Assembly: GCA_016861205.1 (NCBI GenBank)
Contig: BOKX01000001.1
Coordinates: forward strand, 520,539-584,538
Direction of reading: 5' to 3'
Length of the DNA stretch: 64,000 nucleotides
Source of the DNA: Patescibacteria group bacterium
Lineage (GTDB): Bacteria > Patescibacteriota > Microgenomatia > UBA1400 > PJMF01
Position numbers and translations under genes: made by a program. Positions 1 to 28,238 of this stretch are shown in pieces; the first letter of the stretch is position 1; every line of letters starts with the position of its first letter. The notes beneath the pieces were generated by a model that was not told the origin of the DNA, ran no database searches, and was given only the letters and a program-made list of their open reading frames with translations.

Positions 1-283
1 CAACCCAAACTTCCATACCCAGAAAATAGGTAAAAACACCATTGAGATATATGGCCAAGGGGGCTTTGTAGTCACCAAAGGACCGGAATGAAACTGGCAA
101 TCGTTCTAACCACTCGTCACGACGCTTGGTAATAACTGCGTAACCGTTATAACCAATGGCTGCTTCATCCCACGCTAATCCATGTGGCACCTGGCCTAGC
201 TGGTAAAAACGTAAAAGGGCAGCAACTACCAAAATAGCGACTGCCCACCACCACCATGTTTTTTGTATGACTGCACGCTGCAT
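1..283 (-). CDS. GT-C family (GT39/GT83, PMT/ArnT-like) membrane glycosyltransferase, N-terminal part; the gene continues beyond the window start
   Basis: The reverse complement reads MQRAVIQKTWWWWAVAILVVAALLRFYQLGQVPHGLAWDEAAIGYNGYAV. The first loop carries the WDE motif typical of PMT/ArnT-type GT-C enzymes. The ATG lies at 281-283. Confidence 0.6.
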   Translation of the reverse strand, partial: MQRAVIQKTWWWWAVAILVVAALLRFYQLGQVPHGLAWDEAAIGYNGYAVITKRRDEWLERLPVSFRSFGDYKAPLAIYLNGVFTYFLGMEVWV

Positions 284-336
284 GTTACAACCTTATCATA
301 GCAGACGGAGATCACCCTGCGTGATACTATCATTGC

Positions 337-1830
337 ATGAGATCACGAGTTATGGACCACCCAAGCTGGTGGTGGGGTTGGTGGTTACTTGGCATAGCCC
401 TGACTCTGTGGATGACTCGCTGGATCTGGGGCACTTCAGTCGATATTGAGTATCTGCAAAGTTTCTTCGACCGCTCGCAGTGGCGAATACCACTCAGTGA
501 ACACGTCATCGCTGATAGTGAACTGTACTTGGTCGCTGGTTGGCGACTAGTAACTCGCCACGATTTCTATCAAACCAATCCTGAAGTGCCACCTGTTGGC
601 AAGTATCTTTATGGCCTGACCATGATGGCGACTGGCCAACCCTACCTGGTAACTGTCAGCTTGTACCTAGTGGCAATTTTGAGTTTCGGTTGGTTTGTTC
701 ATCAGTGGCTGCCAAAACCAGCGGCCCGCTTGGCTACCGGCTGGTGGATCTGGAGCGGCTTGTTGAGCTGGCAAGTTAGCCAAACCATGTTAGATCTACC
801 TCAAGTTGTCTTTTTGTTGTGGCATGTGATCATGATCGGCTTGGCGCTCAAAACTACCTCGCGCAAACAGCACCTGTTGGCTTTCGGTGGAGCTGGCGTG
901 ACTCTCGGTCTTTTTGCAGCCACGAAAATTGGGTTGTTCGTACCACTCGTGTTACTAGCCGATACTTGGTTTGCATTGATAACCGGTCAATGGTGGGCAG
1001 TAGGAGTTATCGGATTGCTGAGCGGGTTTACTTACTTAGTTTCCTATGCTGATTTTCTAAGGCAGAACACTATTTTAGATTGGCTAAAAGCCCAAAAATG
1101 GATGTTAAACTTCTATGCTGCTTCCAAGCTCAAACCAATTCCCGGCATGGCAGTGATCACCAGCCTGACTGGCTGGTATCGTGGCTGGTGGCAAACGCAG
1201 GGTTGGCAGTTTGTCCAAGACTGGAACGTGCTTTGGTCACTCGGTGTTTTAAGCTGGCTAGTGGGTATCAAAAAGTGGCAGTGGCGAGTGAGTGCCCGGC
1301 AACCTGAAACAGTTATGGCACACTATGTCCTTCTGCTGGGTGGTCTCATCTTTGTGAGCATGTGTGTGATTCCCTTTTGGCCAAGATACTTCCTGCTGGT
1401 CTTACCATTTGGCATCTATTGGCTGGCCAAAATCATCGCGCCATACCCCAAACTCAGTTGGGTCGTGACAGGCATAGTTGTCATGCAGTGGTTTGTCAGC
1501 ATGGCACCAAACCCAACAGAACGACTGCACTTCATCATAGATGGTTGGCAACAAGAACACTGGGCCGAGCTCTACAGCCTCACAGATCCTCAGTTTCAGA
1601 AACAAGTTAGCCGTGCTGAGTTTTATCGAACGTGGTCCAGTTCCCCAGCCATTCCCAAAACCGCCACTCTGACATCAGCACTAACTCCTTGGCAAACGCA
1701 CGCCTCAGCCGAGCTGGTCTTCCCCACAATCACCGGAGAGGTACGGACCCAGATACTATTAACTCGAGTGGGTAATCAGTGGTTCTGGTCAATTCCTGTC
1801 GAGACACTGTCACCGACAGTGGTTCAATAG
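337..1830 (+). CDS. Polytopic Trp-rich integral membrane protein, putative GT-C-like glycosyltransferase
   Basis: The ORF is 497 aa with many hydrophobic segments. It is divergent from the GT-C gene at the window start. No soluble catalytic motif was seen. Confidence 0.5.
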   Translation: MRSRVMDHPSWWWGWWLLGIALTLWMTRWIWGTSVDIEYLQSFFDRSQWRIPLSEHVIADSELYLVAGWRLVTRHDFYQTNPEVPPVGKYLYGLTMMATGQPYLVTVSLYLVAILSFGWFVHQWLPKPAARLATGWWIWSGLLSWQVSQTMLDLPQVVFLLWHVIMIGLALKTTSRKQHLLAFGGAGVTLGLFAATKIGLFVPLVLLADTWFALITGQWWAVGVIGLLSGFTYLVSYADFLRQNTILDWLKAQKWMLNFYAASKLKPIPGMAVITSLTGWYRGWWQTQGWQFVQDWNVLWSLGVLSWLVGIKKWQWRVSARQPETVMAHYVLLLGGLIFVSMCVIPFWPRYFLLVLPFGIYWLAKIIAPYPKLSWVVTGIVVMQWFVSMAPNPTERLHFIIDGWQQEHWAELYSLTDPQFQKQVSRAEFYRTWSSSPAIPKTATLTSALTPWQTHASAELVFPTITGEVRTQILLTRVGNQWFWSIPVETLSPTVVQ

Positions 1831-1833
1831 GTG

Positions 1834-2718
1834 TTACCAGCCAACTTTTCGAAACTTCCAGGCATGATACGGCAGCCACATCAAGAATTGGAGTTTTTGC
1901 CACCAAGTTGAGTGGACCCAAGCAAAGGTTCTAGTATGTCGCCAACTCCACAACGTCATGGCAGACTCGCCGAACACAGCTTGGTGCGTGGTTTCATGTT
2001 GATGAACCACAACGGCCTCGGTCGCAAACCAAGTTTTCCAGCCACGCTTTTGCGCTCGACGTGAAATATCAATATCTTCCCAGTAAGCAGGGTAGTAACG
2101 CTTATCGAACCCACCCAGCTCTAACCATTTAGCGCGGTCAAACATACCACTGCCACCACTCACCCAAGCCGTTTCTCCAGAAGTGAAGTTCACTGCCCGA
2201 CTGTGCATGAACAAGCCACGCTGAAACCATAGCCGATTTTTGCCACCCCACTGTTCGCCACCTTTATCGTCAGGTTCGCGCTCCAAGCAACCAACCCCAA
2301 ACATCAACTCATCATCGAAGTAGGGCAACAGTGTGTCGATTACATCGGGGGCTGGCGAAACATCATTGTTTAGTAACAAAACAAACGGGTGATGCGCCAA
2401 GCGAAAACCAGCATTGGCATTTGCTCCAAAGCGAACGTTTTTGAGGTGTCGCAGGTACCACATCACCACTGACTTGCGACCCAAATGTACGGTCGCAAAA
2501 TAGAGCTCGGTACCAGCAATCTTGTCGGCTGGGGCAGGCTCGAGATGCCAGGTTTTTTGGGCCCACGTCAAAGAACCATCTGTACCCGCGTCATCAGCAA
2601 TGATCACTTCATCGCCATCTCGAACACACGCTAACACCGCTGGCAGGTTTTTTTTCAATAATTCTTCGCCGTTAAAAGTTGGAATCACCACTGAAACATG
2701 GTGTTTAAGTGTTGGCAT
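1834..2718 (-). CDS. Family 2 glycosyltransferase (GT2)
   Basis: The N-terminus reads VSVVIPTFNGEELLKKNLPAVL....IIADDAGTDGS. The start was moved to the ATG at 2716-2718, which is preceded by a GGAGA ribosome-binding site. Confidence 0.75.
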   Translation of the reverse strand: MPTLKHHVSVVIPTFNGEELLKKNLPAVLACVRDGDEVIIADDAGTDGSLTWAQKTWHLEPAPADKIAGTELYFATVHLGRKSVVMWYLRHLKNVRFGANANAGFRLAHHPFVLLLNNDVSPAPDVIDTLLPYFDDELMFGVGCLEREPDDKGGEQWGGKNRLWFQRGLFMHSRAVNFTSGETAWVSGGSGMFDRAKWLELGGFDKRYYPAYWEDIDISRRAQKRGWKTWFATEAVVVHQHETTHQAVFGESAMTLWSWRHTRTFAWVHSTWWQKLQFLMWLPYHAWKFRKVGW

Positions 2719-3829
2719 GCTGGTCTCCAATCATCTGTCGTAACGTGGCTTTAAATGCAGCCTCACCAAATGAAGCCGCTTGTTTTTGTGCCTGGTGGCT
2801 GGCTGCTGCAACTTGATCAGGATTCTTGATCAGGTCAAGGGTTTTGCGCATCCCATCCGTGGGGGTTTGCCATAACCACATCTTAAGAGCATCACCAACA
2901 ACCTCAGGCTGGCCGCCTTTCCCATGCACTACCGGCACGGCTCCCATAGACATCGCTTCAACTGTACTAATTCCGAAATGTTCTACTTTCATCGGTTCAG
3001 TGGTCTCATCAACTTCCCACCCCGCAGCGTGCCAATAAATTTTGGCTTTTGCATACCACTGCCACACTTCAAACTTAGACAGCGAGTGATAAAACTCGAT
3101 CGGCAAACCTTTGGCTGCACCTTTGACTGCTGCTGCGTACTGTTCATCTTCGACTGCCCCGATGAGCACCAACTTCCAGCCTGCCAGCAACTTCGGTTCT
3201 GTCTTGAGCAGCTCGGTAAACATACTCACCAGAACATCCTGCCGTTTGCTGTGAAGGTGTTTAAAAAACCTACCCACTGATAGGATCACTTTTTCTTTTC
3301 GGATAGTTGCACCTACTTCAAGTGGTGGTACCACCATTGGATAATGCACAAATTGAATCGGTGTGTGCCAAGCCCGAGACACTACTCGCCGGGTGAACAC
3401 TGAGTTGGTGTTGCGAATCGGCCAATTAAAAAGTTTGAGCCGCTGGCTCATACTCAGCGGTTTTGAAAATGGGAACTGAATATGCATGACATTTCGCTTG
3501 GCAGCACTCCACCACATACTGCCATCGGTGAGATAGTAAACAACGTCGAACTGTTTGGTCCATGACAACTTGGACAACCAACTATCACCAGCGTTCATTG
3601 GCGCTGGCACCCACTGAATCCCTGCAAGTGACTCACCCAAAAAAGCTTCGTACGCTTTGATCTTTGCTGTCAGTTGTTCATCAGACACAACTGGGCCTGA
3701 CAACCCAATGGTGACTTTGTGTCCATCGCTTACCAAACACCTTGCCACATCCAAGATGTACTTCTCACCGCCTCCAAAGTGTTTCGGCAAGTAAGGTGAG
3801 TAGAGGCCGATTTTCATTGATGAACCCAT
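2705..3829 (-). CDS. Family 4 (GT-B) glycosyltransferase
   Basis: The C-terminal motif EHFGISTVEAMSMGAVPVV is the GT4 E-x7-E signature. The start is ambiguous between 3817, 3829 and 3850. Confidence 0.7.
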   Translation of the reverse strand: MGSSMKIGLYSPYLPKHFGGGEKYILDVARCLVSDGHKVTIGLSGPVVSDEQLTAKIKAYEAFLGESLAGIQWVPAPMNAGDSWLSKLSWTKQFDVVYYLTDGSMWWSAAKRNVMHIQFPFSKPLSMSQRLKLFNWPIRNTNSVFTRRVVSRAWHTPIQFVHYPMVVPPLEVGATIRKEKVILSVGRFFKHLHSKRQDVLVSMFTELLKTEPKLLAGWKLVLIGAVEDEQYAAAVKGAAKGLPIEFYHSLSKFEVWQWYAKAKIYWHAAGWEVDETTEPMKVEHFGISTVEAMSMGAVPVVHGKGGQPEVVGDALKMWLWQTPTDGMRKTLDLIKNPDQVAAASHQAQKQAASFGEAAFKATLRQMIGDQHANT

Positions 3830-3831
3830 GG

Positions 3832-4683
3832 TCAGACTCGCTTTCGCCACAGTTCGGCCACTAACTCTTCATGCCGACGATATCGAGCTGACAGGGATGG
3901 TTTTTGCTGCAGCTCCCAAACTTGGATGTACACTAACAGCCGATTCGTTGCTTGAACTAAGGCTTCTATCCAACCTGGCAAACCGTCCTTATAACCTTGT
4001 TCTTTAACACCTCGGCGCAACAACTCCATGCCGAACTTCCTGAATAAGGTTGTCAATTTCACTGGTGGAATACCTGACTCAAACAGCAAGCGCGCTTCGA
4101 TGGGTGTCCACTCTGCTGTTTTTAACAAACCTGAGACCACATTGCGATGAGTTAGATGCAAGAGTGGTTGTTGTAACTCGCTTACTTCGCCATCTATGTC
4201 TGCGTGTTCGTGTACCTCACCAGCCCACGTTTTGAGCTTCAGCCGATTGAACAATCGGACCACCCGATCATGCTGCCAGCCGCCATAGTACATTGGGTAT
4301 CCGTACAGTACATTGCTGCGTCGGACTGAGTAAGCAGTTGGGGCATGAGGATTGGTCTCTGATTGAGCTATGGCACTTCGCACTTCATCAGCTAATGCAG
4401 GGACTACTCGCTCATCCGCATCCACATAGAGCACCCAATCAGTTTTGGCTCGACGCAAGGCTTCGTTTCTAAGTTCCGAGAAGCCACCTTTGGTGGTCAC
4501 TACTCGCGCTCCAGCCCGCTTCGCCAACTCGGCAGTGGTATCACTCGAATCGTTGTCCACCACGATCACTTCATCACACCACTGCAAACTGTCGAGACAG
4601 TTGGCAATCATGTCAGCTTCATTCCGAGCTATCACTAACGCAGAAATTGTCGGTTGAGTTTTGGTTTCAGTCATCGTGTTCAT
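3832..4683 (-). CDS. Family 2 glycosyltransferase (GT2)
   Basis: The sequence ISALVIARNEADMIANCLDSL...VVDNDSSDTT is GT2-like. Its start overlaps the stop of the next gene in an ATGA coupling. Confidence 0.75.
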   Translation of the reverse strand: MNTMTETKTQPTISALVIARNEADMIANCLDSLQWCDEVIVVDNDSSDTTAELAKRAGARVVTTKGGFSELRNEALRRAKTDWVLYVDADERVVPALADEVRSAIAQSETNPHAPTAYSVRRSNVLYGYPMYYGGWQHDRVVRLFNRLKLKTWAGEVHEHADIDGEVSELQQPLLHLTHRNVVSGLLKTAEWTPIEARLLFESGIPPVKLTTLFRKFGMELLRRGVKEQGYKDGLPGWIEALVQATNRLLVYIQVWELQQKPSLSARYRRHEELVAELWRKRV

Positions 4684-5594
4684 AAAATAGTTTGCTTTCC
4701 TAGATTACCCACCACCACATCTACAATGGCCCGTCGCTCATAGTAACCACCTCGCCAAGCGAGTCTAACTGCCAAACTGATGACTGTTAGTTTGGTTCTC
4801 CAAGAACCATAGCGCCAGCAGAACCACAATCGATTCCGAGTCTGATAGTACAGATGCAGTGGCGAACCTGGACCCCCAGTTGAACCAGCATTCGTATGCC
4901 AAATTTTGGCAGTTGGACAGAGTTTGAGAGCAAAACCATGATATTTGACCCTCATGCTCCAATCCACATCTTCTAGATAGAGGAAGTATCGATCATCTAA
5001 GCCACCCACAATCTCCAAAACTTTTCTCGGCAGAAGGACACAGCAACCTGTCGCGAAATCCATGTCACTATCCGCAGCAAATTGACCACGATCCAGCTCA
5101 TCAATTCCTCGATGAAAAGCATCGAGGTTGCGCCAGTCTATACTCCCGCCACCGAACCAGAGGACTTTACCGAGATCTTTTGGCTGATAACTCGACTGAT
5201 GGAACTCTCTTCCAGCAGTAAAGTAAATCAACGGATTCACCATCCCAACTTCTGGATGATTAACCAAGTAGGCATGAAGTTCAGTCAAAAAATTCGGTGA
5301 CACAATCGTGTCATTATTCAGCAGTAAGACATAATCTGACTGGTACGTCTCCAGTGCATGTTTGACGAGTAAGTTATTTCCACCCGTAAAACCCAAGTTA
5401 GTTTCGCTGCGCAAAATTTCGAGCGGTAACTCCTGCAACTTAGGTGGCACCGTAAAAATTTCTTTTGAAGCGTTGTCCAAAACGATAATCTGGTACCGAA
5501 AGCGTTTAGCCTCAAGTCGCCGCAGCGAATCAAGACACTTGAGCGTGTCAGCTTCAGCATTGTAGTGGACGATCACGATACTAATGTGGTCCAT
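4680..5594 (-). CDS. Family 2 glycosyltransferase (rhamnosyl/galactosyl-transferase-like)
   Basis: MDHISIVIVHYNAEADTLKCLDSL...VLDNASKE shows the GT2 fold and the DxD region. Confidence 0.75.
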   Translation of the reverse strand: MDHISIVIVHYNAEADTLKCLDSLRRLEAKRFRYQIIVLDNASKEIFTVPPKLQELPLEILRSETNLGFTGGNNLLVKHALETYQSDYVLLLNNDTIVSPNFLTELHAYLVNHPEVGMVNPLIYFTAGREFHQSSYQPKDLGKVLWFGGGSIDWRNLDAFHRGIDELDRGQFAADSDMDFATGCCVLLPRKVLEIVGGLDDRYFLYLEDVDWSMRVKYHGFALKLCPTAKIWHTNAGSTGGPGSPLHLYYQTRNRLWFCWRYGSWRTKLTVISLAVRLAWRGGYYERRAIVDVVVGNLGKQTIL

Positions 5595-5625
5595 ATGTCT
5601 CTCTATTATACGTACTCACGCACTT

Positions 5626-6579
5626 TTAAACTCGAAGTTTGCGTCGCACTCGCCAAACCAGCTGCTCCCAACCTCGAGTCCGCTGGACCTGAGTATCTGC
5701 TAACCAATATGCCAACTGACCACGCAAAGAAGCCAAAGCAGTTACCTCAACGTCCGTCTGCTGGTGGGTGGCCGTTGCCAGCTCTTCTGGCTTGACTAAC
5801 TCGAGGTACTTGAGGTGAACGGCGAGTTCATAGCACCCCTGCATCAGGGCCAAACTGGCTCCGACCGTGCCATCCATGAAACCTTTTTTATGAAAGAAAC
5901 GACTTTGAAACTCATTAAAAAAAGTCTCAATAGCTGAAGTTGGTTGGCTGGGTTGCTTGGTACTCTCGCTTGCTAGCTCCTCAGCTTTCAGATCAGTGTA
6001 ACGATTCAAACGCTCCAAGTATGACTGAACCGTTGGGTAGTTTTGATGCATCAGAGCCACGTTAGGATCGGCTGGCAAGTAAACACTTTCTCCATCAACT
6101 TTGGGCAATCGATGTACACCATCCTCCCAGGTCACTTTACCTTGTTGAAAAAGCCTTGCTTGATGATCAGGCCACCAACCGGTGTGAGCCACCCAGTGAC
6201 CAAAAATGTAGTTCTGCCGCGGCAACCAATAACAAGCAACGGTGCTAGCACTTGGCTGACTGAGAGTTGACCGAATCCAAGTAGCTAAACTGGGGGGAAC
6301 GGTTTCATCAGCGTCTAAAACTAGAATCCATGGCTGCTTAGCTTGGGCGTTGGCAAAGTTGCGGGCGGGATCAGCGTAGCGGTGATTTTTCGTGTAGGTG
6401 ATAACTTGATCGGCATACTTTTTTGCAATCTTAACTGTGTCATCGGTGCTTTGCATGTCGACCACCACCACTTCACTAGCCAAATCTTTGACACTACGAA
6501 GGGCCGCCTCTAACGTTGTTGCGGCGTTTTTGGTGTTGATTACGACACTCAGTGGCAAAGCAGATTTCGGTTCTGTCAT
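5626..6579 (-). CDS. Family 2 glycosyltransferase (GT2)
   Basis: LSVVINTKNAATTLEAALRSV...VVVVDMQSTDDT is GT2-like. The start was trimmed to the ATG at 6577-6579 (MTEPKS), because the longer ORF would overlap the divergent gene. Confidence 0.7.
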   Translation of the reverse strand: MTEPKSALPLSVVINTKNAATTLEAALRSVKDLASEVVVVDMQSTDDTVKIAKKYADQVITYTKNHRYADPARNFANAQAKQPWILVLDADETVPPSLATWIRSTLSQPSASTVACYWLPRQNYIFGHWVAHTGWWPDHQARLFQQGKVTWEDGVHRLPKVDGESVYLPADPNVALMHQNYPTVQSYLERLNRYTDLKAEELASESTKQPSQPTSAIETFFNEFQSRFFHKKGFMDGTVGASLALMQGCYELAVHLKYLELVKPEELATATHQQTDVEVTALASLRGQLAYWLADTQVQRTRGWEQLVWRVRRKLRV

Positions 6580-6616
6580 ACTTGAATGGTACCATTCATT
6601 GTATAGTCTAGAGTGT

Positions 6617-13064: not shown

Positions 13065-13243
13065 CCAAAGACCAACCTTTTAGTCCCACGTTTGTGACCA
13101 GACTCTTAGTGATTCTGACTATCGTGTTTGCCCTGGCTGCCGGCTACTATCGGTCCGTCTTGCTCATTTACCACCGCCAATACGTTAAGCTCGACACGCA
13201 ATACCGCCAACTGCAACTACAAGAAAGAGGAGAAGCACGCTAA
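13061..13243 (+). CDS. Small single-pass membrane protein (60 aa), hypothetical
   Basis: Its start overlaps the LCP stop in an ATGA coupling. The protein has one TM helix. Confidence 0.3.
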   Translation: MTKDQPFSPTFVTRLLVILTIVFALAAGYYRSVLLIYHRQYVKLDTQYRQLQLQERGEAR

Positions 13244-20138: not shown

Positions 20139-21431
20139 ATGAAGCTAACTGTGATTGGAACTGGATATGTCGGCGTTGTCTCAGCTGCCGTGTACGCCTC
20201 ATTCGGCCATCAAGTCACTGGTCTTGATGTTGACGCTAAAAAAGTCGCGGCCTTAAAAGAAGGCAAGGTACCTTTTTACGAGCCTCACCTCGAAGAGTTA
20301 TTACTGGAGCAACAAGCGGCTGGCAGATTGCGATTTACCACAGAGTACAACGAAGCCATCCCAGATGCCGAAATTGTGATCATTGCTGTTGGCACTCCAT
20401 CAGCAGCAGACGGTCAAGCTGATCTCAAGTACATCAAAGCAGCCACCGAAAGTTTGGCTCCCCTCGTCAGTGATGGCACCATCGTAGTTATCAAGTCAAC
20501 CGTCCCACCGGGAACGCTGAAAATTGTGGATGATCAGCTCAAATCGTTGGGCAAAACCCGCTACTACACTGCGTCGTTGCCCGAGTTTTTGCGTGAGGGC
20601 AGTGCGGTCAATGATACCCTTCATCCTGACCGAGTGGTGATCGGCGCATCTGATGCTTTTGTATTCGATAAGTTGGAAGAACTACACAAGCCCCTGAATG
20701 CCCCAGTGGTTAAGATCACTCCTGAATCAGCACAAATGGCAAAATACGCGGCCAACAACTACTTAGCTACCCGTATCACTTTTGCCAATCAAATTGCTGA
20801 CCTGTGCGATAAAAATGGCGCTGACGTCCAAGAAGTCATTGCCGCCATCGGTCTCGATCAACGGATTGGCAATCACTACTGGTATCCAGGCTTCGGCTAC
20901 GGCGGCTCATGCTTCCCCAAAGATGTCAAAGAACTGGCCGCCTACTCTAGAGCAGTTGGTGAAGCCAACAATCTGTTTAACAAAGTTAATGAGCTTAACG
21001 AAGGTCGGATTCCTCGTCTACTCGAGCTCTACGGCCAAAAAATCGGTGGCTGGGCTGGCAAAAAAGTTGCCATCCTTGGTCTAAGCTTTAAACCAAATAC
21101 CGATGACATGCGTGAAGCACCCAGCACAAAAGTTGTGCCCGAGCTGATCAAAGCCGGTGCCGAGGTGGTCGGTTTTGACCCTCGAGCTGAGTGGTCAGTT
21201 TTCATGCCAAACACACCACTCAACCAAGTTGAGGATATCAAAACTGCTGTCGCTGAAGCCGACGTTATCATGGCTCTCATCGAGTGGCCAGAGATTCTGA
21301 GTTGTGACTTTGGCGCCCTCAAACTTGAAAAGCAACAGTGGTTTATCGATGCTCGAAATCAGTTTACACCTGATCAAGTAGTCGGCTGGGGTTACGCATA
21401 TATTGGAATTGGTCGACCTAGCAGGGAATAA
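20139..21431 (+). CDS. ugd: UDP-glucose 6-dehydrogenase
   Basis: MKLTVIGTGYVGVVSAAV...GGSCFPKD carries the UDPGDH catalytic Cys motif. Confidence 0.9.
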   Translation: MKLTVIGTGYVGVVSAAVYASFGHQVTGLDVDAKKVAALKEGKVPFYEPHLEELLLEQQAAGRLRFTTEYNEAIPDAEIVIIAVGTPSAADGQADLKYIKAATESLAPLVSDGTIVVIKSTVPPGTLKIVDDQLKSLGKTRYYTASLPEFLREGSAVNDTLHPDRVVIGASDAFVFDKLEELHKPLNAPVVKITPESAQMAKYAANNYLATRITFANQIADLCDKNGADVQEVIAAIGLDQRIGNHYWYPGFGYGGSCFPKDVKELAAYSRAVGEANNLFNKVNELNEGRIPRLLELYGQKIGGWAGKKVAILGLSFKPNTDDMREAPSTKVVPELIKAGAEVVGFDPRAEWSVFMPNTPLNQVEDIKTAVAEADVIMALIEWPEILSCDFGALKLEKQQWFIDARNQFTPDQVVGWGYAYIGIGRPSRE

Positions 21432-22390
21432 TGACTGAGCTGCACGAACAACCTATCCTGGTAACTGGCGGAACTGGTTTTGCCGGCTCACATTTGCTCG
21501 AAGCCCTAGCAGAGGCTGGTTACCGAAACCTTCATACCACCAGCTTGCAAGCCAAACGACCAAATTGGGTGTCACCAGATGTTGTTATTCACCAGGTTGA
21601 ATTGACAGATAGTGTGGCCACGGCTGAATTTATTGCCGAACTACAGCCTGTTCATATTTACCATTTGGCTTCGATGGCAGTAGTCGGTCAGAGTTTTGAG
21701 ATTGCCCAAAGTTTGCTCAGTAATAACATCGCCCTTCAGCTCAACGTACTGGAAGCAGTTCGCTCTCATGCTCCAGGGGCTCGGCTTCTGACTATTGGTA
21801 GTGCGGAGGAGTACGGAGCTGTCCGGTTGGGTCCTGACGAGAAAATTAATGAAGGCTACCCGCTCAGCCCAGTAAATCCCTATGCCGTTTCCAAAACAAC
21901 CCAAGACCTCTTAGCCCACGCGTATCACCAAAGTTATCAGCTGCAGATTGTGCGCACTCGACCTTTTAACCACATCGGCGAGCGACAGACTCCGCACTTT
22001 GCCATTTCTAGTTTTGCCAAACAAATTGTCGCTATTGAGCGCGGGCAGCAGTCAGAAATTAAGGTTGGCAACTTACAAGCCGTTCGCGACTTTACCGATG
22101 TCAAAGATATGGTCCGCGCCTACATTACGCTCATGGAACATGGTCGTGTTGGTGAAGTGTACAACATTGGAAGTGGCGTTGGCCGTAGTATTGAAGAACT
22201 CCTTGCTGAACTGTGCCGACAAGCAACAGCACCAATCAAGGTCAGCATCGATCAGAACCTGATTCGCCCTCTTGATGTTCCTCGCTTGGTTGCGGATAAT
22301 GGAAAAATTGCCCAACTTGGATGGTTCCCAACCATCCCCCTGCCTAACACGTTACAACGTATGCTTGAGTATTGGAGAGGCCAATCATGA
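21431..22390 (+). CDS. NAD-dependent sugar-nucleotide epimerase/reductase of the GMD family, likely a GDP-4-keto-6-deoxy-D-mannose reductase (Rmd-like)
   Basis: [14 protein letters not shown] and the YAVSK active site are present. It is coupled to gmd by an ATGA overlap. Confidence 0.7.
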
Positions 22391-23364
22391 AAAAAGCATT
22401 TATTACCGGTATCACAGGTCAAGATGGTTCGTACTTGGCCGAGTTGCTACTCGAAAAAGGTTATCGGGTCTATGGTTTAACTCGCCGCACCAGCACCCAA
22501 AACTTTGCCCGTATCAAACACATTATTCACCATCCACAGTTGGAGCTGGTGTCAGGTGACTTGATTGATCAGCACTCTTTGACAGGTGCCATTCAAGAAA
22601 TCCAACCCGATGAGGTTTACAACTTGGCTGCCCAGTCATTTGTGCAGACCAGTTGGGAACAGCCCATTTTAACCGGTGAGTTCACTGCTATCGGTGTAAC
22701 CAGAATTCTCGAGGCTGTCCGGTTGGTCTGTCCGCACACTAAGTTTTACCAAGCTAGTTCATCAGAGATGTTCGGTAAAGTGCAGCAGGTACCACAAACT
22801 GAGACCACCCCTTTTTACCCTCGTTCACCTTATGGTGTAGCCAAGGTCTACGGTCACTGGATTACTGTTAACTATCGTGAATCCTATGACCTGTTTGCAG
22901 TCTCTGGTATTTTGTTCAATCATGAGTCACCTCGCCGTGGCCTTGAGTTTGTGACTCGTAAAATTGCCAATGGTGTTGCTCGCGTCAAACTCGGCAAACA
23001 ATCTCACATTGAGCTCGGCAACTTGGAAGCCAAACGTGACTGGGGATATGCCAAAGACTACGTTGAAGCCATGTGGCTGATGCTGCAACAAGAGCAACCT
23101 GACGACTATGTGGTCGCTACTGGTGAGACCCACTCGGTTCGCGAATTCTTGCAACTGGCTTGTGAAGCCGCTGGCATCAATGACTGGGAGGCTGTTTACA
23201 AACACAATCCTCGCTACGACCGGCCTGCCGAAGTTGATCTGCTGATTGGTGATCCCACTAAAGCCAAGGAAAAACTCGGTTGGAAACCCAGCGTTACCTT
23301 CCCAGAACTTGTTGATTTAATGATGAAAGCAGAACTCGAGGAAGAAAGCCAAAGTCGAGACTAA
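22387..23364 (+). CDS. gmd: GDP-mannose 4,6-dehydratase
   Basis: [30 protein letters not shown] is the classic Gmd N-terminus. The start was set to the ATG at 22387. Confidence 0.9.
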
Positions 23365-23381
23365 CGGAAGGTCACTGGTGT

Positions 23382-24557
23382 ATGTCACGAGCTGTCGTTA
23401 TCATTCCAACCTACAACGAGCGCGAAAATATTCGCACCACAATTGAAGCGGTCATGAAGCAAGCCGATCTGGTTGGCGAGTGGCAACTTCATGTATTGGT
23501 GGTCGACGACACTTCACCTGATGGCACCGCCGCAGAAGTCGAGCAAATTCAAAAACGTGAGAAGCGCGTGCATCTTTTGATTAACCCAACGAAAGCCGGT
23601 CTTGGAGCTGCCTACCTCAAAGGGATGGAGTATGCGTTTGGTCTGTTGAAGGCAGATGTCATTTTTGAGTTTGATGCTGACCTGTCACATGACCCTACCA
23701 AAATCCCCGCTCTACTCAAAAAAATAGACGCCGGCTATGACATGGCTCTCGGGTCACGCTACATTAAAGGTGGTGGAATTCCCCAAGACTGGGGTTTACA
23801 CCGCAAGTTCCTCAGCGTGGTCGGCAACATCGTGATCATGGTAGTTTTCACTGATTTTCGGATCCGCGACTGGACGAGCGGCTATCGGGCTATTACTAAA
23901 CGGGTTTACGATGCAGTCCACAAAGAATTAACAGGGGAACGTTTTACCGGCTACACTTTCCAAATTGGTTTCTTGTACCAGACGGTGCGCAAAGGCTTCA
24001 ACGTGGCAGAAGTCCCATTTGTGTTTGTTGATCGAGTGCACGGACACTCCAAACTAGGACCTGAATACATTAAGAATAATTTGTTGTATATTTTTAAGAT
24101 GCGTTATCTCGAAATCATCAACAACCGTATTTTCAAGTTTGCCGCAGTAGGTGGCACCGGGGCCATGGTTCAGCTGGTCTCACTGTATTTATGGCGACTG
24201 TTTTTACCGTATCAGGTCGCCTTTTTTGCTTCAATTGAGAGTGCCGTCGTTTCCAACTTTATCTTGAACAATGTCTGGACTTTCTCTGATCGCAAGTTGG
24301 ATCGCAAAAGTCTACCCAGTAAGTTCATTCAGTTTAACTTAGCCTCTTCTGGCTCAATCTTGATTCAGCAAGCTATTGCGTTGGTGGGCGAGTTTGTGAT
24401 CGGGCTGCATCCACTCTTCACGCTGCCCTTTACTTCGATCTTGATCGACACTGGTCACCTCTATGCCGTGGTTGGTATTCTAGTCGGCATGTTCTGGAAC
24501 TTTTTTGCCTACACCAAGTTTATTTGGAAAGCTGGGAAACCCACCAGCCGAAAGTAA
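23382..24557 (+). CDS. Polyprenol-phosphate sugar synthase, a Dpm1/GtrB-like GT2 domain fused to a C-terminal GtrA-like four-TM domain
   Basis: VVIIPTYNERENI...VDDTSPDGT is GT2-like. The C-terminus has four TM helices, including FKFAAVGGTGAMVQLVSLYL, which resembles GtrA. Confidence 0.8.
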   Translation: MSRAVVIIPTYNERENIRTTIEAVMKQADLVGEWQLHVLVVDDTSPDGTAAEVEQIQKREKRVHLLINPTKAGLGAAYLKGMEYAFGLLKADVIFEFDADLSHDPTKIPALLKKIDAGYDMALGSRYIKGGGIPQDWGLHRKFLSVVGNIVIMVVFTDFRIRDWTSGYRAITKRVYDAVHKELTGERFTGYTFQIGFLYQTVRKGFNVAEVPFVFVDRVHGHSKLGPEYIKNNLLYIFKMRYLEIINNRIFKFAAVGGTGAMVQLVSLYLWRLFLPYQVAFFASIESAVVSNFILNNVWTFSDRKLDRKSLPSKFIQFNLASSGSILIQQAIALVGEFVIGLHPLFTLPFTSILIDTGHLYAVVGILVGMFWNFFAYTKFIWKAGKPTSRK

Positions 24558-24590: not shown

Positions 24591-26159
24591 ATGCGCTGGA
24601 AACTACCTCGCACTTTTTCTTGGCTGACTATCGCACTGGGGGTGATTCTGCTCGTGGCTAGTTTTGTGCGGCTGTACAACCTGGGTGGAAGTTTGCTCTT
24701 CCAAGGTGACCAAGGTCGCGATGCCATGATTGTGGCTCGGATCTTCAAAGAAGCTGATCTGGTGTTTATTGGACCAGTTACCAGTGTTGGTAACATGTAT
24801 CTTGGTCCTTTGTACTACTACTTCATGCTACCCTGGCTGTGGTTAAGCTATCCCAGCCCACTGGGACCAGCTTATGGAGTGGCCATTTTAGGGATTGTGA
24901 CTGTCTGGCTCATGTATCGGCTTGGCCGAGAGCTCATCGGAGTCAAAGCTAGCTTGATTGCCACTAGTTTATTTGCTGTTTCGGCTGTGGTCGTTCAGTA
25001 CAGTCGGTTCAGTTGGAATCCTAACCCCGCCCCCTTCGTTTCAATCATTATGATGTGGGCCACCTATCGTGCCTGGCAAAAGTCAGGTTGGTACTGGATC
25101 ATTGTAGCCACCTGTTTAGCTGGCTTGATGCAGTTGCATTACTTGGCACTTTTATCTGGTGGTGGCGCTGGGCTGATCTGGCTCTGGCAGCAATTCACTC
25201 TTTTCAAAGAAAAGAACTGGTCTCAACTTCGCACCGCTTGGTTAGGGACCTTGCTCGGAGGACTAGTAGTACTACTGTCTTTAACACCACTTATGCTGTT
25301 TGACTCTAGACATAACTGGTTGAACGTCAAGGCATTCCAAAAACTGTTTACGGAAGAACAAAGTTTCAAAGTCACGAACACACAACCTTGGACAGCTCGA
25401 GTAGCTGACACTGTCAAAGAAATGCACGGCCGATCACTACACATTTTTTGGGAGGTCCCGCTCGGCCAGTCTCGGGAACGGAACACCATTCTCCTGATTG
25501 CAAGTTTACTGATTTGGGCTAGGGTGATGACTAATCTCAAACTGGGACCTACTTCAAAATCGAAAACTGTTAGCTCGACTGCTCCCACCTTGGCTGGATT
25601 AATTGTGATCAGCAGCTTCGCCCTAACAGGCGTGTTGGGAACAGCCGTCTACGACCACACTGTTTTTGACCACTACATCGCGTATCTGTTCCCTGTCACT
25701 TTTTGGGTGTATGGTGTGGCGCTCGGCTGGCTCTGGTCAAAACCAGTTGGCAAGGTAGCAACCATCGCTTTTGTGGCTTACTTCCTCAGCTACAACTTGC
25801 CTCGGTTACCTCTGCGCTCGAATGGCTGGACTATTTATGACATGGAACGTGTCAGTCAAAACGTTCTCAAGGTAGTAAAACCAGGCGAGTCGTACGGTAT
25901 CGTGTTGTTGTCTGAGTCCAAAGACCTCTATGGACAAAACTATCGCTACTTCCTCTCAACGAGTGACCATCCGGCACTCAGTCCAGAACAAGTAAACACG
26001 GCCGATGCCTTAGTTATCATTAATGAGGAAAAGGCAGTCACGGATCCAGAAGCTATTCGATCGCTGCCGATCTGGGAAATAACTACCTTCCCAGCCACCG
26101 GTTCACCTCTGGTATACTGGAACGGCTCAGAACCCGACTTGCTAGTATTGAGAAGATAA
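24591..26159 (+). CDS. Polytopic membrane protein, GT-C-like paralog (DQGRD motif)
   Basis: VRLYNLGGSLLFQGDQGRDAMIVARIF...GPLYYYF. It lies directly downstream of the Dpm1-like gene. Confidence 0.6.
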   Translation: MRWKLPRTFSWLTIALGVILLVASFVRLYNLGGSLLFQGDQGRDAMIVARIFKEADLVFIGPVTSVGNMYLGPLYYYFMLPWLWLSYPSPLGPAYGVAILGIVTVWLMYRLGRELIGVKASLIATSLFAVSAVVVQYSRFSWNPNPAPFVSIIMMWATYRAWQKSGWYWIIVATCLAGLMQLHYLALLSGGGAGLIWLWQQFTLFKEKNWSQLRTAWLGTLLGGLVVLLSLTPLMLFDSRHNWLNVKAFQKLFTEEQSFKVTNTQPWTARVADTVKEMHGRSLHIFWEVPLGQSRERNTILLIASLLIWARVMTNLKLGPTSKSKTVSSTAPTLAGLIVISSFALTGVLGTAVYDHTVFDHYIAYLFPVTFWVYGVALGWLWSKPVGKVATIAFVAYFLSYNLPRLPLRSNGWTIYDMERVSQNVLKVVKPGESYGIVLLSESKDLYGQNYRYFLSTSDHPALSPEQVNTADALVIINEEKAVTDPEAIRSLPIWEITTFPATGSPLVYWNGSEPDLLVLRR

Positions 26160-26161
26160 CT

Positions 26162-26947
26162 ATGGCCATGAACTCAAAACCCTTTCTCTCCGTCATCATT
26201 CCCTCCTACAACGAACAAAAAAACCTCGGCCGCGGCGTGCTTGATGAGGTAGTGACGTACCTCAAAACACAGTCGTATCCTTGGGAAGTCATTCTGAGTG
26301 ATGATGGCTCGAGTGATGGTACCGCCGATTTGCTTGATGATTTTGCCAAAAAACACGGTTCAAGCGTCAAAGTACTGCACAATATTCATGCAGGCAAAGG
26401 GCCCACTGTCCAGTCAGGTATGCTCCAAGCTACTGGCGAATGGCGACTGTTCACCGACTTTGACCAATCGACGCCTCTGGCTGAAGTCGAAAAATTGTTG
26501 AGTTGGGCTGAACAAGGTTATGAAATTGTCATCGGTTCTCGAGAGATCAAAGGTGCTCACCGCGATGAAGAACCCTGGTACCGCCACTTGATGGGCAAAG
26601 GCTTCAATCTGCTAGTTCAAACGCTGGCAGTCCCAGGCATCATGGACACCCAGTGTGGCTTTAAACTTTTCTCGGCGCAAGCCGCTGAACAGTTGTTTGG
26701 CGATCTGCACATCTACGGCCGACAAGAAGAGCGCCACGACGCGTTCACCGGCGCTTTTGACGTGGAAATTTTGTTCCTGGCTCGAAAACGTGGTCTTCGC
26801 ATCAAAGAAGTCCCTATCACTTGGAGTCACCACGAAACAGATCGGGTCAGTCCTGTTAAGGATTCCGCTCGAATGCTTCGCGATATTTTGATGGTCAGAT
26901 TGGCTGACCTCCAAGGCAAGTATGCCCACCGCAATCACAGCTCCTAA
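26162..26947 (+). CDS. Polyprenol-phosphate glycosyltransferase, Dpm1/GtrB-like GT2, soluble
   Basis: LSVIIPSYNEQKNL...LSDDGSSDGT...FDQSTP. It is tightly coupled to its flanking genes. Confidence 0.8.
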   Translation: MAMNSKPFLSVIIPSYNEQKNLGRGVLDEVVTYLKTQSYPWEVILSDDGSSDGTADLLDDFAKKHGSSVKVLHNIHAGKGPTVQSGMLQATGEWRLFTDFDQSTPLAEVEKLLSWAEQGYEIVIGSREIKGAHRDEEPWYRHLMGKGFNLLVQTLAVPGIMDTQCGFKLFSAQAAEQLFGDLHIYGRQEERHDAFTGAFDVEILFLARKRGLRIKEVPITWSHHETDRVSPVKDSARMLRDILMVRLADLQGKYAHRNHSS

Positions 26948-28238
26948 ATCTGGTTGGTGGTGGCTAGCCTGGTTCAGCTGGGGTTTAGGCTGGGCAGTTT
27001 ACATCTGGTTTTCCTACAGTTTGACCGCTCCTAATCTGGTCCTAAGTGGCTCAGCGCCTTTCTGGAAGTTCCAAACCTGGATGTGGAAAACATTTTTTAA
27101 CAACCGGGAACTCCTCGGCAACGTCTATCTGGCGATCATCACCTGGCAAGTAGCGAATTACCTCGGACTACTGTTTTTAACTATCAAAAAACGGCTGCCG
27201 GTACCTTGGTTGATGTGGTTGGGAGGACTGATAGCACTGTTGTTGGCGAATAATGCCCTGTCGTATGACGTTTTTAACTACATTTTTAATGCCAAAATGG
27301 TGGCTGTGTACCAGGTAAATCCCCATGTTCGAGTAGCACTCGACTTTGCCGATGATCCTTGGACTAGGTTCATGCACAACACCCACACCACTGCTCCCTA
27401 CGGCTATGGCTGGACGGCGTTATCCCTGGTGCCATTTTGGCTCGGTTTGGAACGGTTCACCCTAACCTGGCTACTATTCCGAGCTTGGAGTTTGCTGAGC
27501 ATCGGACTAACCTGGCTCAGTCTTGAGTGGTGCATTCGACTACTACGGTCAAAACGAGGTGGCAAGTCACTGGCGGACGCCTGGCAACGCTATCGCCTGG
27601 TGTTGTGGCTCAGTCCCTTATTACTCATCGAGATCATCACCAACAGCCACAACGACTTGTGGATGATGGCGCCGGCACTTGCCAGTTTGGGACTGGCGGC
27701 GGCTAGACCAGCCAAAAAGTGGTGGTGGATGGTGCTACTCAGTTTCGTGCTGCTCGTCGCCTCAGCCAGCATTAAGTACGCTTCACTTGTACTACTACCT
27801 CTGTGGCTAGCCTTGTGGACACAGGAATTGTGGAAACGGTGGCCGCTACTGTCTGGCTGGAGTCGATTGCTGGACTGGAGCTGGCCATGGTTGGCTTCGC
27901 TAGCTTTCTTTGCGCCGCTGCTTACCACTCGCTCACAGCAATTTCACCCCTGGTACTTAACTTGGGTACTGGTCTGGTGGCCATTGAGCTGGAGTCTAGC
28001 TGTTAGTCATCGCGACAGAATCAAGGGCTGGTGGCTGTGGCTACTACAAACGTGGTGGTTCATCGTCTTGTGCTTGTCGATCACCTCGCTGCTGCGATAT
28101 GCACCATACTTTTATGCCGGCGAGTTTAAACTGGGCGTATTGCTACATCAAAAACAAATCACTTGGTCTGGAGTTGGCCTAGGCCTTGGGTTGAGCCTGC
28201 TTACGAGGTGGTCGCCGCTCAAGCGTCAGGTCTCCTGA
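26922..28238 (+). CDS. Polytopic membrane protein (438 aa), putative GT-C-like transferase
   Basis: Many Trp-rich TM segments. Its start overlaps the end of the GT2 gene at 26162. The pairing resembles GtrB with GtrC. Confidence 0.5.
   Translation: MPTAITAPKSGWWWLAWFSWGLGWAVYIWFSYSLTAPNLVLSGSAPFWKFQTWMWKTFFNNRELLGNVYLAIITWQVANYLGLLFLTIKKRLPVPWLMWLGGLIALLLANNALSYDVFNYIFNAKMVAVYQVNPHVRVALDFADDPWTRFMHNTHTTAPYGYGWTALSLVPFWLGLERFTLTWLLFRAWSLLSIGLTWLSLEWCIRLLRSKRGGKSLADAWQRYRLVLWLSPLLLIEIITNSHNDLWMMAPALASLGLAAARPAKKWWWMVLLSFVLLVASASIKYASLVLLPLWLALWTQELWKRWPLLSGWSRLLDWSWPWLASLAFFAPLLTTRSQQFHPWYLTWVLVWWPLSWSLAVSHRDRIKGWWLWLLQTWWFIVLCLSITSLLRYAPYFYAGEFKLGVLLHQKQITWSGVGLGLGLSLLTRWSPLKRQVS

Follow-up and report, generated by a model that had tools for sequence, protein, structure and literature searches.

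The stretch of DNA analysed here (the window: 64,000 nucleotides of contig BOKX01000001.1, from a Patescibacteria group bacterium) carries in its first 28,238 positions a dense cluster of glycan genes rich in membrane glycosyltransferases of the GT-C fold. We consider it reasonably probable, at about 0.65, that these genes, in at least two modules, serve to build a wall-linked glycopolymer that would be assembled in the cytoplasm, flipped across the membrane, elaborated outside by the GT-C enzymes and anchored by a LytR-CpsA-Psr (LCP) transferase. This reading is carried by the family or fold of the parts, by their conserved catalytic motifs and by conserved gene order.

Glycan-related genes account for 21 of the 23 within 1-28,238. 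The range holds eight GT-C genes (one cut by the window's edge), two polyprenyl-phosphate-sugar synthases of Dpm1/ArnC type, five cytoplasmic glycosyltransferases of families GT2 and GT4, a Wzx-type flippase, an LCP transferase, and a sugar-nucleotide set of RfbB, an RmlD-family reductase, Ugd, Gmd and an Rmd-type Gmd paralog. Given this proportion, and as the arrangement recurs in other genomes, the cluster is more than a chance assembly. An initial annotation of the same DNA had proposed a single 28-kb supercluster with at least eight polytopic GT-C-like proteins, two Dpm1/GtrB-like synthases, six GT2/GT4 enzymes, a Wzx flippase and an LCP transferase. Structure, Pfam and homologs bear out the eight GT-C genes, and matches to DPMS, ArnC and GtrB the two synthases (23382-24557 and 26162-26947); the flippase and LCP transferase are likewise sound, whereas the cytoplasmic GT2/GT4 enzymes in the range number five (1834-6579, minus strand). 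The limits of 1-28,238 were drawn wrongly on both sides, as GT-C genes lie beyond left and right: a contig (L007) that agrees with the window at every position of an 11,830-nt stretch continues to the left with two further GT-C-like genes and then a Peptidase_M23 gene, and an AftD-like gene stands to the right of 28,238. The density of glycan genes stands, but not their unity, for the region is at least two modules lying side by side, each separately conserved in metagenome contigs of Microgenomates and other candidate phyla radiation (CPR) bacteria.

The GT-C genes in and around the range are as follows.

left of the window, on L007: GT-C-like, ArnT/PMT_2-like, 606 aa
left of the window, on L007: GT-C-like, DQxRD paralog, 499 aa
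1-283, minus strand: ArnT/PMT_2-like GT-C, 5' part (94 codons) of a 547-aa gene cut by the edge; whole gene on L007
337-1830, plus strand: GT39/PMT-like GT-C, 492-497 aa, with a C-terminal NTF2-like (MecA_N-type) outer domain; assigned through homologs
6617-8623, plus strand: GT-C-fold enzyme, 668 aa; AlphaFold2 (AF2) model and Foldseek, no Pfam model
10142-11884, minus strand: YfhO/PTPS_related-type GT-C, 580 aa; own weak matches to YfhO (1.4e-5), PTPS_related (7e-4) and PgfM2 (2.6e-7)
15184-16686, plus strand: PMT_2-like GT-C paralog, DQGRD motif; BLASTP 1.5e-18 to 24591-26159, Pfam PMT 3.4e-4 (below cut-off)
16602-18230, plus strand: PMT_2-like GT-C paralog, DQARD motif; BLASTP 9e-9 to 24591-26159, Pfam PMT_2 5e-3 (below cut-off)
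24591-26159, plus strand: PMT_2-family GT-C, 522 aa; Pfam PMT_2 37.4 bits against a cut-off of 26.1
26922-28238, plus strand: MptA/MptB-family GT-C, 438 aa; precomputed Pfam match PF26314 (MptA_B_family)
33765-37130, plus strand: AftD-like GT-C, 1121 aa; AF2 pLDDT 89.4, no Pfam match of its own

Two of these proteins, 6617-8623 and 33765-37130, were modelled, and both, neither with a Pfam match of its own, have the GT-C fold that had been predicted for the membrane open reading frames (ORFs); the others are assigned by GT-C-clan Pfam matches to the PMT_2, PMT, PTPS_related, YfhO and MptA_B families, either direct or through homologs. The count of eight in the range is confirmed, on evidence that runs from structural (for one in-range gene) to family-level. 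A crude hydropathy scan (threshold 1.3) found 7-12 transmembrane segments in 337-1830, 6437-8623, 10142-11884, 15184-16686, 16602-18230, 24591-26159 and 33729-37130, ten in the full 547-aa protein and just five in 26922-28238, while the AF2 models of 6617-8623 and 33765-37130 contain some 13-15 long helices each. Each family carries in its first loop an acidic residue that is either invariant or kept in at least 90% of members: D145 for 6617-8623, D60 for 337-1830, D58 for the AftD-like family, D44 for the DQxRD paralogs (24 of 25 members), D40/D44 for homologs of 24591-26159, E40 for the ArnT-like family and D116 for the MptA/B-like one. By the positive-inside rule, the loops bearing these residues are predicted to face the outside.

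Neither the full 547-aa protein nor 337-1830 has a Pfam match of its own. In the family alignment of the former (32 relatives from related loci), PMT_2 matches 26/32 sequences and PMT 11/32, E40, D71 and K73 are invariant, and the profile finds ArnT (5EZM) at E 6e-4, aligning the region of the invariant GDYK lysine. Homologs of 337-1830 (E 1e-60 to 1e-80) match PF02366/PF13231 (PMT/PMT_2) and carry the NCBI name GT39, and D60 is invariant throughout the family, whose profile finds strong matches in the PDB to its C-terminal penicillin-binding protein (PBP)-like domain only, Pmt2 standing at E 1.5. This C-terminal domain is related to MecA_N, the NTF2-like domain at the N-terminus of PBP2a/PBP5 (profile against PBP3/PBP5/PBP2a, E 1e-20 to 1e-12), and the protein of the window retains only the first part of it; the fusion, seen at the level of sequence, hints at an acceptor near peptidoglycan. 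Homologs of 10142-11884 number 808, and among the best 120 of them (42-55% identity, bar one near-identical sequence at 89%) most match PF10131 (PTPS_related) and many also PF09586 (YfhO), PF13231 (PMT_2) or PF11847 (GT-C_AftD). The first-loop motif DQxRD is common to 15184-16686, 16602-18230 and 24591-26159; comparison of families by hhalign returned low probabilities (family A2 against 24591-26159, 14%; A1 against A2, 6%).

The most singular member of the set is 6617-8623, for which neither Pfam, NCBIfam nor the PDB, profile search included, returned a sequence match. Its start is placed at 6617, as the ORF start at 6437 would make the protein too long for a family whose members measure 650-690 aa. 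The AF2 model, built with 40 homologs, has a pLDDT of 91.5 and a pTM of 0.92, and the top 20 Foldseek matches in the PDB are without exception GT-C enzymes (STT3, PglB, AglB, DPY19, AftA, ArnT and ALG6), the best of them (STT3/PglB/AglB) at E 7.5e-8 and TM ~0.45 over nearly the full length; beyond these come unrelated transporters at probabilities of at most 0.07. Invariant in the family are D145, H149, N174-Y175-H176, K315, Y317 and R437, and its 32 genome loci (one genome per species scanned) so far come only from metagenome-assembled genomes (MAGs) of Microgenomates type. Membership in STT3 was considered and rejected: there is no STT3 match in Pfam or among PDB sequences and no WWDYG-type motif among the conserved columns, and DPY19, AftA and ArnT fit the model almost as well as STT3, PglB and AglB, so that the likeness is one of fold alone. 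The gene does stand between the cytoplasmic glycosyltransferase block and Wzx, as that of an en-bloc transferase would. It is conceivable, though we regard it as distinctly unlikely when taken jointly with a wider reading of Microgenomates heteropolysaccharides, that the family is a new enzyme class acting on a flipped undecaprenyl-pyrophosphate-oligosaccharide, either as a polymerase that replaces Wzy or by transferring the oligosaccharide en bloc to protein or wall. Were this so, the Microgenomates would use some ten GT-C enzymes to assemble, outside the membrane, a multi-branched heteropolysaccharide of the wall, an independent analogue, in ultra-small bacteria, of mycobacterial arabinogalactan and lipoarabinomannan.

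The right-hand part of the range (20.1-28.2 kb, module B) runs in the order ugd, Rmd-type short-chain dehydrogenase/reductase (SDR), gmd, Dpm1-like synthase, PMT_2 GT-C, ArnC/Ppm1-like synthase and MptA/B-like GT-C; its genes other than the two GT-C genes listed above are these.

20139-21431, plus strand: UDP-glucose 6-dehydrogenase (Ugd); three UDPG_MGDP_dh Pfam domains, TIGR03026 411.8 bits against 189.8
21431-22390, plus strand: extended SDR, Rmd-type Gmd paralog; 30% identity to Gmd, passes no equivalog cut-off
22372-23364, plus strand: GDP-mannose 4,6-dehydratase (Gmd); TIGR01472 449.4 bits against a cut-off of 415
23382-24557, plus strand: Dpm1-type polyprenyl-phosphate-sugar synthase with a fused GtrA-like domain of four transmembrane segments; PDB 5MLZ, E 5e-43
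26162-26947, plus strand: ArnC/Ppm1-type polyprenyl-phosphate-sugar synthase; PDB ArnC 3.4e-16, DPMS 3.7e-15, GtrB 3e-8

Both synthases find DPMS, ArnC and GtrB as their top relatives in the PDB, that is, polyprenyl-phosphate-sugar synthases rather than glycan-extending GT2 enzymes. The first aligns to DPMS of Pyrococcus furiosus (5MLZ) over residues 4-358, transmembrane domain included, matches Glycos_transf_2 and GtrA_DPMS_TM (63 bits) in Pfam, and places its FEFDADLSHDP on the catalytic DAD, D98-A-D100 corresponding to D89-A-D91 of DPMS; D98-A-D100-L-S-H is kept across 53 homologs. In the second, D99-F-D101 aligns with the DAD of ArnC and DPMS, and 67 homologs keep both this motif and D47-D48. 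The retention of the DxD and catalytic-region residues, on which the initial annotation had staked its assignment, thus holds for both genes: among these 53 and 67 homologs conservation is at least 90% at the DxD, at the nucleotide-binding DD(G)S and at numerous further positions. The equivalog matches in NCBIfam (for 26162-26947 to ArnC, PgfS and Dol-P-hexose transferase) fall far below their cut-offs (ArnC 66 versus 529, PgfS 67 versus 500), and as no cut-off of the curated models (ArnC, PgfS, PpgS, Dol-P-hexose transferase) is reached neither synthase is the ortholog of a named enzyme. As to the GT-C partners, D40, Q41, R43 and D44 are conserved among 55 homologs of 24591-26159, which presumably takes the product of the synthase upstream of it, and 26922-28238, whose start overlaps the gene of the second synthase, conserves D116, D145, E237, H243-N244-D245, K285 and R337 among 77 homologs, its NALSxDxFNY loop strongly so; PDB sequence searches with these two GT-C proteins gave nothing useful.

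Coupling of synthase to GT-C, proposed beforehand from precedent, finds its support in conserved neighbourhoods. A metagenome scan with 26922-28238 retrieved 80 loci at 36-51% identity, and where there was room upstream to count adjacency the MptA/B-like gene follows directly behind a 26162-like GT2 gene in 63 of 64 loci, that gene being preceded in turn by a 24591-like GT-C gene in 60 of 63. Within 6 kb of the MptA/B-like gene we find a DPMS-like gene in 54/80 loci, gmd in 50/80, an SDR gene in 47/80 and ugd in 33/80. These counts, and the rarity of module A genes in the flanks, mark the seven genes as a conserved operon distinct from module A. An alternation of synthase and GT-C that has been kept over deep divergence is the signature also of gtrB-gtrC, arnC-arnT and csbB-yfhO, and supports outer-face transfer dependent on polyprenyl-phosphate-sugars; as such, polyprenyl-(pyro)phosphate-linked sugars are the predicted donors of the GT-C enzymes, a prediction that draws its support from this conserved adjacency.

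Of the sugar-nucleotide genes that had been named rfbB, rfbD, ugd, gmd and Rmd-like, RfbB and Gmd pass their cut-offs and Ugd that of its subfamily model (NDP-sugar dehydrogenase), the RmlD assignment is strong in Pfam but below equivalog level, and the Rmd type fits. The closest annotated matches of the 21431-22390 SDR are Pseudomonas plasmid genes of ~312 aa named GDP-mannose 4,6-dehydratase, the plasmid records each holding two matching places; judged by sequence, it is probably a GDP-4-keto-6-deoxymannose reductase of Rmd type, a reading that these matches fit rather than prove.

The left-hand part (module A, about 1-18.2 kb and the two GT-C genes to the left) contains, besides its GT-C genes, the following.

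1834-2730, minus strand: cytoplasmic GT2; Pfam Glyco_tranf_2_3 and Glycos_transf_2, no transmembrane segment
2705-3850, minus strand: cytoplasmic GT4 (GT-B); Pfam Glycos_transf_1 62 bits, and Glyco_transf_4
3832-4683, minus strand: cytoplasmic GT2; Pfam Glycos_transf_2 59.5 bits, paralog of 5626-6579 (33% identity)
4680-5594, minus strand: cytoplasmic GT2 with a weakly rhamnosyltransferase-like C-terminal part; Pfam GT2, TIGR01556 7e-14 (below cut-off)
5626-6579, minus strand: cytoplasmic GT2; Pfam GT2 66.7 bits, nearest solved relatives GmaR and SunS
8641-10182, minus strand: Wzx-type (MOP family) flippase; Pfam Polysacc_synt_3 164.5 bits, Polysacc_synt 72.5 bits, ~12 transmembrane segments
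11940-13064, plus strand: LCP phosphotransferase; Pfam LytR_cpsA_psr 95.7 bits against a cut-off of 24.6
13256-14287, plus strand: dTDP-glucose 4,6-dehydratase (RfbB/RmlB); TIGR01181 472.8 bits against a cut-off of 365.1
14284-15156, plus strand: RmlD-family 4-ketoreductase; Pfam RmlD_sub_bind 168.9 bits, TIGR01214 156.7 (below the cut-off of 224)

The cytoplasmic block reads GT2, GT4, GT2, GT2, GT2, and the LCP protein belongs to its family and has a single N-terminal transmembrane anchor at residues 24-42. A scan for the 6617-8623 family in one genome per species gave 32 loci, and the order [GT2, GT4, GT2, GT2, GT2]/[6617-type GT-C]/[Wzx, YfhO-like]/[LCP, rfbB, rmlD] is kept in three of them (L022, L031 and L040) and partly kept in L010 (a short contig), L011, L018, L019 and L039; in most related loci a homolog of 5626-6579 adjoins the 6617-type gene. 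Where the locus spans at least 15 kb, 17 of 20 hold at least three GT-C-like ORFs (median 5), and the clustering of GT-C genes is a trait of the Microgenomates clade rather than special to this genome. We also considered 5626-6579 as a further Dpm1-like synthase and rejected it, its nearest solved relatives being GmaR and SunS and not DPMS or GtrB. Between the LCP gene and rfbB lies a 60-aa ORF with a single transmembrane segment (13,061-13,243, plus strand); gene calls on three contigs independent of one another (L004-L006) include it.

A third element, at 32.9-38.4 kb, joins the AftD-like gene listed above to two further genes.

32887-33780, plus strand: GT2 with a hydrophobic C-terminal tail; Pfam Glycos_transf_2 129 bits
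37127-38416, plus strand: candidate acceptor surface protein; signal peptide, Pfam LTD 77.8 bits (two stretches), C-terminal transmembrane anchor

The GT2 was likewise rejected as a Dpm1-like synthase, chondroitin and heparosan synthases being its nearest solved relatives. The model of 33765-37130 begins with a transmembrane GT-C domain, continues with large outer domains of beta-sandwich type and closes with a transmembrane helix, and Foldseek returns AftD (6W98/6WBY/6WBX, E 1e-17 to 1.5e-16; 6W98 at 1.1e-17 over the full length) ahead of oligosaccharyltransferase subunits. In sequence the kinship is fainter, with PF11847 matched by 5 of 38 homologs and not by the protein itself and the profile reaching AftD only at E 0.02; W57-D58 is invariant in a family of 1740 representatives (E <= 0.001). 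On the strength of the model we assign the protein to the AftD type by predicted fold, arabinofuranosyl specificity being no part of the assignment. The start codon of the surface protein gene overlaps the stop of the AftD-like gene (translational coupling), and the protein has Pro/Ser/Thr-rich linkers, with S, T or P at 25 of 30 residues near residue 155; it may be a glycosylation acceptor.

Taken together, these parts suggest a logic of cytoplasmic start and extracytoplasmic finish, as in Gram-positive wall polysaccharides and in corynebacterial arabinogalactan and lipomannan; the donors, the order of steps, the acceptor and the cooperation of the modules, as given here, are what we infer. 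In module A, four GT2 enzymes and one GT4 enzyme would make a lipid-linked glycan from nucleotide sugars, with dTDP-6-deoxyhexose supplied by RfbB and the RmlD-like reductase; the Wzx-type flippase would carry this glycan out, GT-C enzymes of the ArnT/PMT_2-like, GT39-like, YfhO-like and 6617-8623 families would extend or decorate it outside, and the LCP transferase would join it to peptidoglycan. Module B would act through two pairs, the Dpm1-like synthase with the PMT_2 GT-C and the ArnC/Ppm1-like synthase with the MptA/B-like GT-C: each synthase would place one sugar on polyprenyl phosphate at the cytoplasmic face, the lipid-sugar would be flipped, possibly via the GtrA-like domain fused to 23382-24557, and the adjoining GT-C would hand the sugar to an acceptor at the outer face. 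The third element would comprise the GT2, the AftD-like GT-C with its carbohydrate-binding-type outer domains, and the Pro/Thr-rich surface protein. As Pro/Thr-rich surface proteins adjoin GT-C genes and relatives of GT39 are present, protein O-glycosylation is likely a second output.

Several observations weigh against the wall-linked glycopolymer and temper our confidence in it. Six of the eight GT-C calls in the range depend on matches below cut-off, on paralogy, or on homologs' or precomputed matches, and our local Pfam scan gave no MptA_B match for 26922-28238 even at E <= 10. The synthase 26162-26947 has zero transmembrane segments, and could in this resemble Ppm1 or GacI, each of which depends on a partner in the membrane. 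Domains of RmlA or RmlC type occur in none of the scanned ORFs of the window, so that the dTDP-L-rhamnose pathway is incomplete there (RmlB above cut-off, an RmlD-family gene below it, A and C not found), just as the initial annotation had remarked of rfbA and rfbC; an rfbB-rmlD pair with neither A nor C nearby recurs in related loci. Nor did Pfam match a polymerase of Wzy/O-antigen-ligase type or an initiating phosphoglycosyltransferase within the window, though such genes may be encoded elsewhere in the genome. Last, module A genes are rare within 6 kb of the homologous module B loci, and in the window trmD and an unrelated ORF stand between the two modules.

If protein O-glycosylation were instead the main output, the Pmt/GT39-like and PgfM/YfhO-like GT-C enzymes would use the polyprenyl-phosphate-sugars to modify Ser/Thr in Pro/Thr-rich secreted or membrane-anchored proteins, after the models of Ppm1/Pmt in Actinobacteria, GT39 in Caldicellulosiruptor and GtrB/PgtC2 or PgfS/PgfM1 in streptococci. 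The GT39/PMT kinship of the 337-1830 homologs favours this, as do the NCBIfam matches, far below cut-off, that tie the two synthases to PgfS and 10142-11884 to PgfM2, the surface protein whose linker region is 25/30 S/T/P and whose gene is translationally coupled to that of the AftD-like GT-C, the 75-aa secreted Pro/Thr-rich peptide at 30991-31218, and the published precedents (PMC6151902, PMC11092751). We nevertheless consider it unlikely: Wzx, five cytoplasmic glycosyltransferases, LCP and a dTDP-6-deoxyhexose branch together mark a polymer that is lipid-linked and then joined to peptidoglycan rather than the modification of proteins with single sugars, the relatives of MptA/B and AftD work on glycans in their known hosts, and at least ten GT-C paralogs exceed the needs of the known systems.

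An LCP transferase in module A, which indicates attachment to peptidoglycan, speaks also against a membrane-anchored lipoglycan or glycolipid resembling lipomannan or lipoarabinomannan, in which the task of the Ppm1-like and MptA/B-like enzymes would be to lengthen a mannan anchored to lipid, no wall polymer being made. To its credit, 26922-28238 matches the MptA_B family, a Ppm1-like synthase that lacks a transmembrane domain lies immediately upstream of it, an AftD-like enzyme is present and gmd and other GDP-sugar genes share the operon; yet the resemblance to MptA/B is at family level only, genes of PimA/PimB/PimE type and acyltransferase genes were not detected within the window, and we hold this explanation to be very improbable. 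It might be, finally, that there is no single system at all, merely an island of independent envelope genes brought together by chance or recombination, whose GT-C paralogs serve unrelated acceptors and are perhaps in part redundant or inactive. The separately conserved modules, the break made by trmD and the unrelated 379-aa ORF, and the differing number and order of GT-C paralogs in related loci could all be read in this manner. Against this, the ORFs are all intact, their catalytic-loop residues are conserved under purifying selection, genes within the modules are tightly spaced or overlapping, synthase and GT-C are adjacent in 63/64 loci, and the order of module A is found again in several species, so that such an island seems to us quite improbable.

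The wall-linked glycopolymer can also be set beside better-known systems. The Corynebacteriales build arabinogalactan and lipomannan/lipoarabinomannan with a set comprising Ppm1, MptA/MptB/MptC, AftA-D, EmbA-C, Pmt, Lcp1 and RmlABCD. There, a glycan begun in the cytoplasm is extended outside by a large number of GT-C enzymes that draw on few polyprenyl-phosphate-sugar donors, and an LCP protein ligates it to peptidoglycan; Ppm1, MptA/B, AftD and Pmt each have a relative, at the level of the family, in the present region (comparison partly from PMC5882110 and PMC3460810). In contrast, we saw no genes here for the decaprenyl-phospho-arabinose pathway, for galactofuranosyl transfer or for phosphatidylinositol mannosides, the predicted sugars are 6-deoxyhexoses and glucuronic acid, and the identities are at superfamily or family level only, in an unrelated lineage.

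The transmembrane glycosylation systems of Gram-positive bacteria (CsbB/GtcA/YfhO; GtlA/GtlB; GacI-GacJ-GacK-GacL of the Streptococcus pyogenes rhamnose polysaccharide; decoration of the lactococcal cell wall polysaccharide; PMC8035078, PMC5836110) are close in logic: a GT-A/GT2 enzyme makes a C55-P-sugar, a flippase of GtrA or Wzx type moves it, and a GT-C transfers it outside. Such synthase-flippase-GT-C systems decorate teichoic acids and LCP-anchored rhamnose polysaccharides, the streptococcal and lactococcal ones being decorated outside by GT-C (PMC8035078). Their target polymer is of cytoplasmic origin and LCP-anchored, rhamnose-pathway genes lie in the cluster, and a GT-A synthase devoid of transmembrane segments is known there too (GacI, which requires GacJ). 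The present region differs in pairing 8-11 GT-C genes with two recognisable synthases, in that one synthase resembles archaeal/eukaryotic Dpm1 and has a GtrA-type domain fused to it, in the MptA/B-like, AftD-like and Pfam-less members of its GT-C set, and in its host, an uncultivated CPR bacterium with a genome of ~1.15 Mb. The lipid A modification pathway Ugd-ArnA-ArnB-ArnC-ArnT likewise has its counterparts here in Ugd, an ArnC-like GT2 and ArnT/PMT_2-like GT-C enzymes, but homologs of ArnA, ArnB and ArnD and lipid A genes were not found within the window, and the match to ArnC, at 66 bits, is far from the equivalog cut-off of 529. Lipid A synthesis is not known from CPR bacteria. Protein O-glycosylation systems (Ppm1/Pmt of Actinobacteria, GT39 of Caldicellulosiruptor bescii, GtrB/PgtC2 and PgfS/PgfM1/PgfM2 of streptococci; PMC5882110, PMC6151902, PMC11092751) resemble the region in their Dpm1/GtrB-type synthase with an outward-acting GT-C, in their GT39/PMT relatives and in the Pro/Thr-rich extracytoplasmic proteins encoded beside GT-C genes; the regions O-glycosylated by GT39 enzymes, and by GtrB or PgfS paired with a GT-C, are rich in Pro/Thr or Ser/Thr (PMC6151902, PMC11092751). 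These systems, however, make do with one or two GT-C enzymes, no PgfS/PgfM equivalog cut-off is reached here, and protein glycosylation would leave Wzx, LCP and the five cytoplasmic glycosyltransferases unexplained.

As to the surroundings, trmD (18,212-18,874, minus strand) lies inside the glycosylation cluster and not in its usual rpsP-rimM-trmD-rplS context, and in the related locus L010 it is likewise placed after a PMT_2-like paralog. The ORF adjoining it (18881-20020, minus strand) encodes an acidic soluble protein of 379 aa with no match in Pfam or NCBIfam and no transmembrane segment, and was rejected as a GT-C on those grounds. To the right of the range, two copies of a leader-like element (30,858-30,945 and 31,529-31,620, plus strand; 82% identical over ~160 nt) take the form GCACCTTAAC...GGTTATT and then a 24-25-bp hairpin, at which the two copies differ in a compensatory manner. 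Promoter-like boxes precede each copy, and an ATG follows ~45 nt downstream; the gene after the first encodes the 75-aa secreted Pro/Thr-rich peptide (30,991-31,218), and that after the second (31,666) a secreted protein of 281 aa that has no Pfam match. The anchor pattern occurs at these two sites only in the window (0 expected by chance), and no family of Rfam fits the element (best E 0.25). At 30,556-30,712 the minus strand carries a tRNA-like 3' half (GGGAGTTCGATTCTCCTCACCTCCA, T-arm and acceptor strand) within a long inverted repeat (30,556-30,592 / 30,679-30,708); Rfam scores it as tRNA-Sec at 22.8 bits (E 0.37) and ARAGORN finds nothing; possible identities are a piece of a tRNA, the remnant of an integration site, or an atypical tRNA. 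The 64 kb as a whole contain no tRNA gene and no Rfam match at gathering level.

Directly after the LTD surface protein comes a VanZ-family membrane protein (38,367-38,768, plus strand). The space from the glycosylation region to the ribosomal operon holds, at 39,184-43,431 on the plus strand, one ABC ATPase gene (40,811-41,806) surrounded by four paralogous permease genes of the ABC2_membrane_6 family. The right third of the window, whose G+C content is 49%, is a standard ribosomal-protein/secY/adk/map/rpoA operon with tuf, and within it are two minus-strand ORFs of 185 and 207 aa (47,967-48,524 and 61,173-61,796) with no Pfam match at E <= 1e-5. Proteins of the region recur with identical sequence on Logan metagenome contigs, and their homologs are found in MAGs labelled Levyibacteriota, Woesebacteria, Roizmanbacteria, Cerribacteria and Paceibacterota/Patescibacteria, which makes the earlier description of a small CPR-type genome a reasonable one; several homolog records carry implausible 'Pseudomonadales' or 'Gammaproteobacteria' labels and are evidently mislabelled.

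The region does not call for a new mechanism, as all its parts fall within the known scheme of GT-A synthase, flippase and GT-C. What is new is the extent of GT-C expansion and clustering in a genome of ~1.15 Mb and its conservation across Microgenomates-type genomes, together with a GT-C family that has no Pfam model and a conserved seven-gene operon with two synthase/GT-C pairs. In the open-access literature searched we came upon no account of GT-C clusters from CPR bacteria, and in that sense the elaborate and undescribed system first proposed is indeed undescribed, although its parts are of known kinds and have close functional analogues in Firmicutes and Corynebacteriales. The two synthase/GT-C pairs, the operon as it occurs in dozens of metagenome contigs, the new GT-C family, whose model is confident and whose invariant residues are few, and the candidate glycoprotein substrate are all testable units. 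Most CPR bacteria, or Patescibacteria, have yet to be cultivated, attachment to host cells is frequent among them, and the chemistry of their envelopes is hardly known. That more than 30 kb of a ~1.15-Mb genome should be given over to extracytoplasmic glycosylation, and conserved in the lineage, suggests that surface glycans are a major selected trait of these organisms, with attachment, evasion of phage and stability of the envelope as plausible roles.

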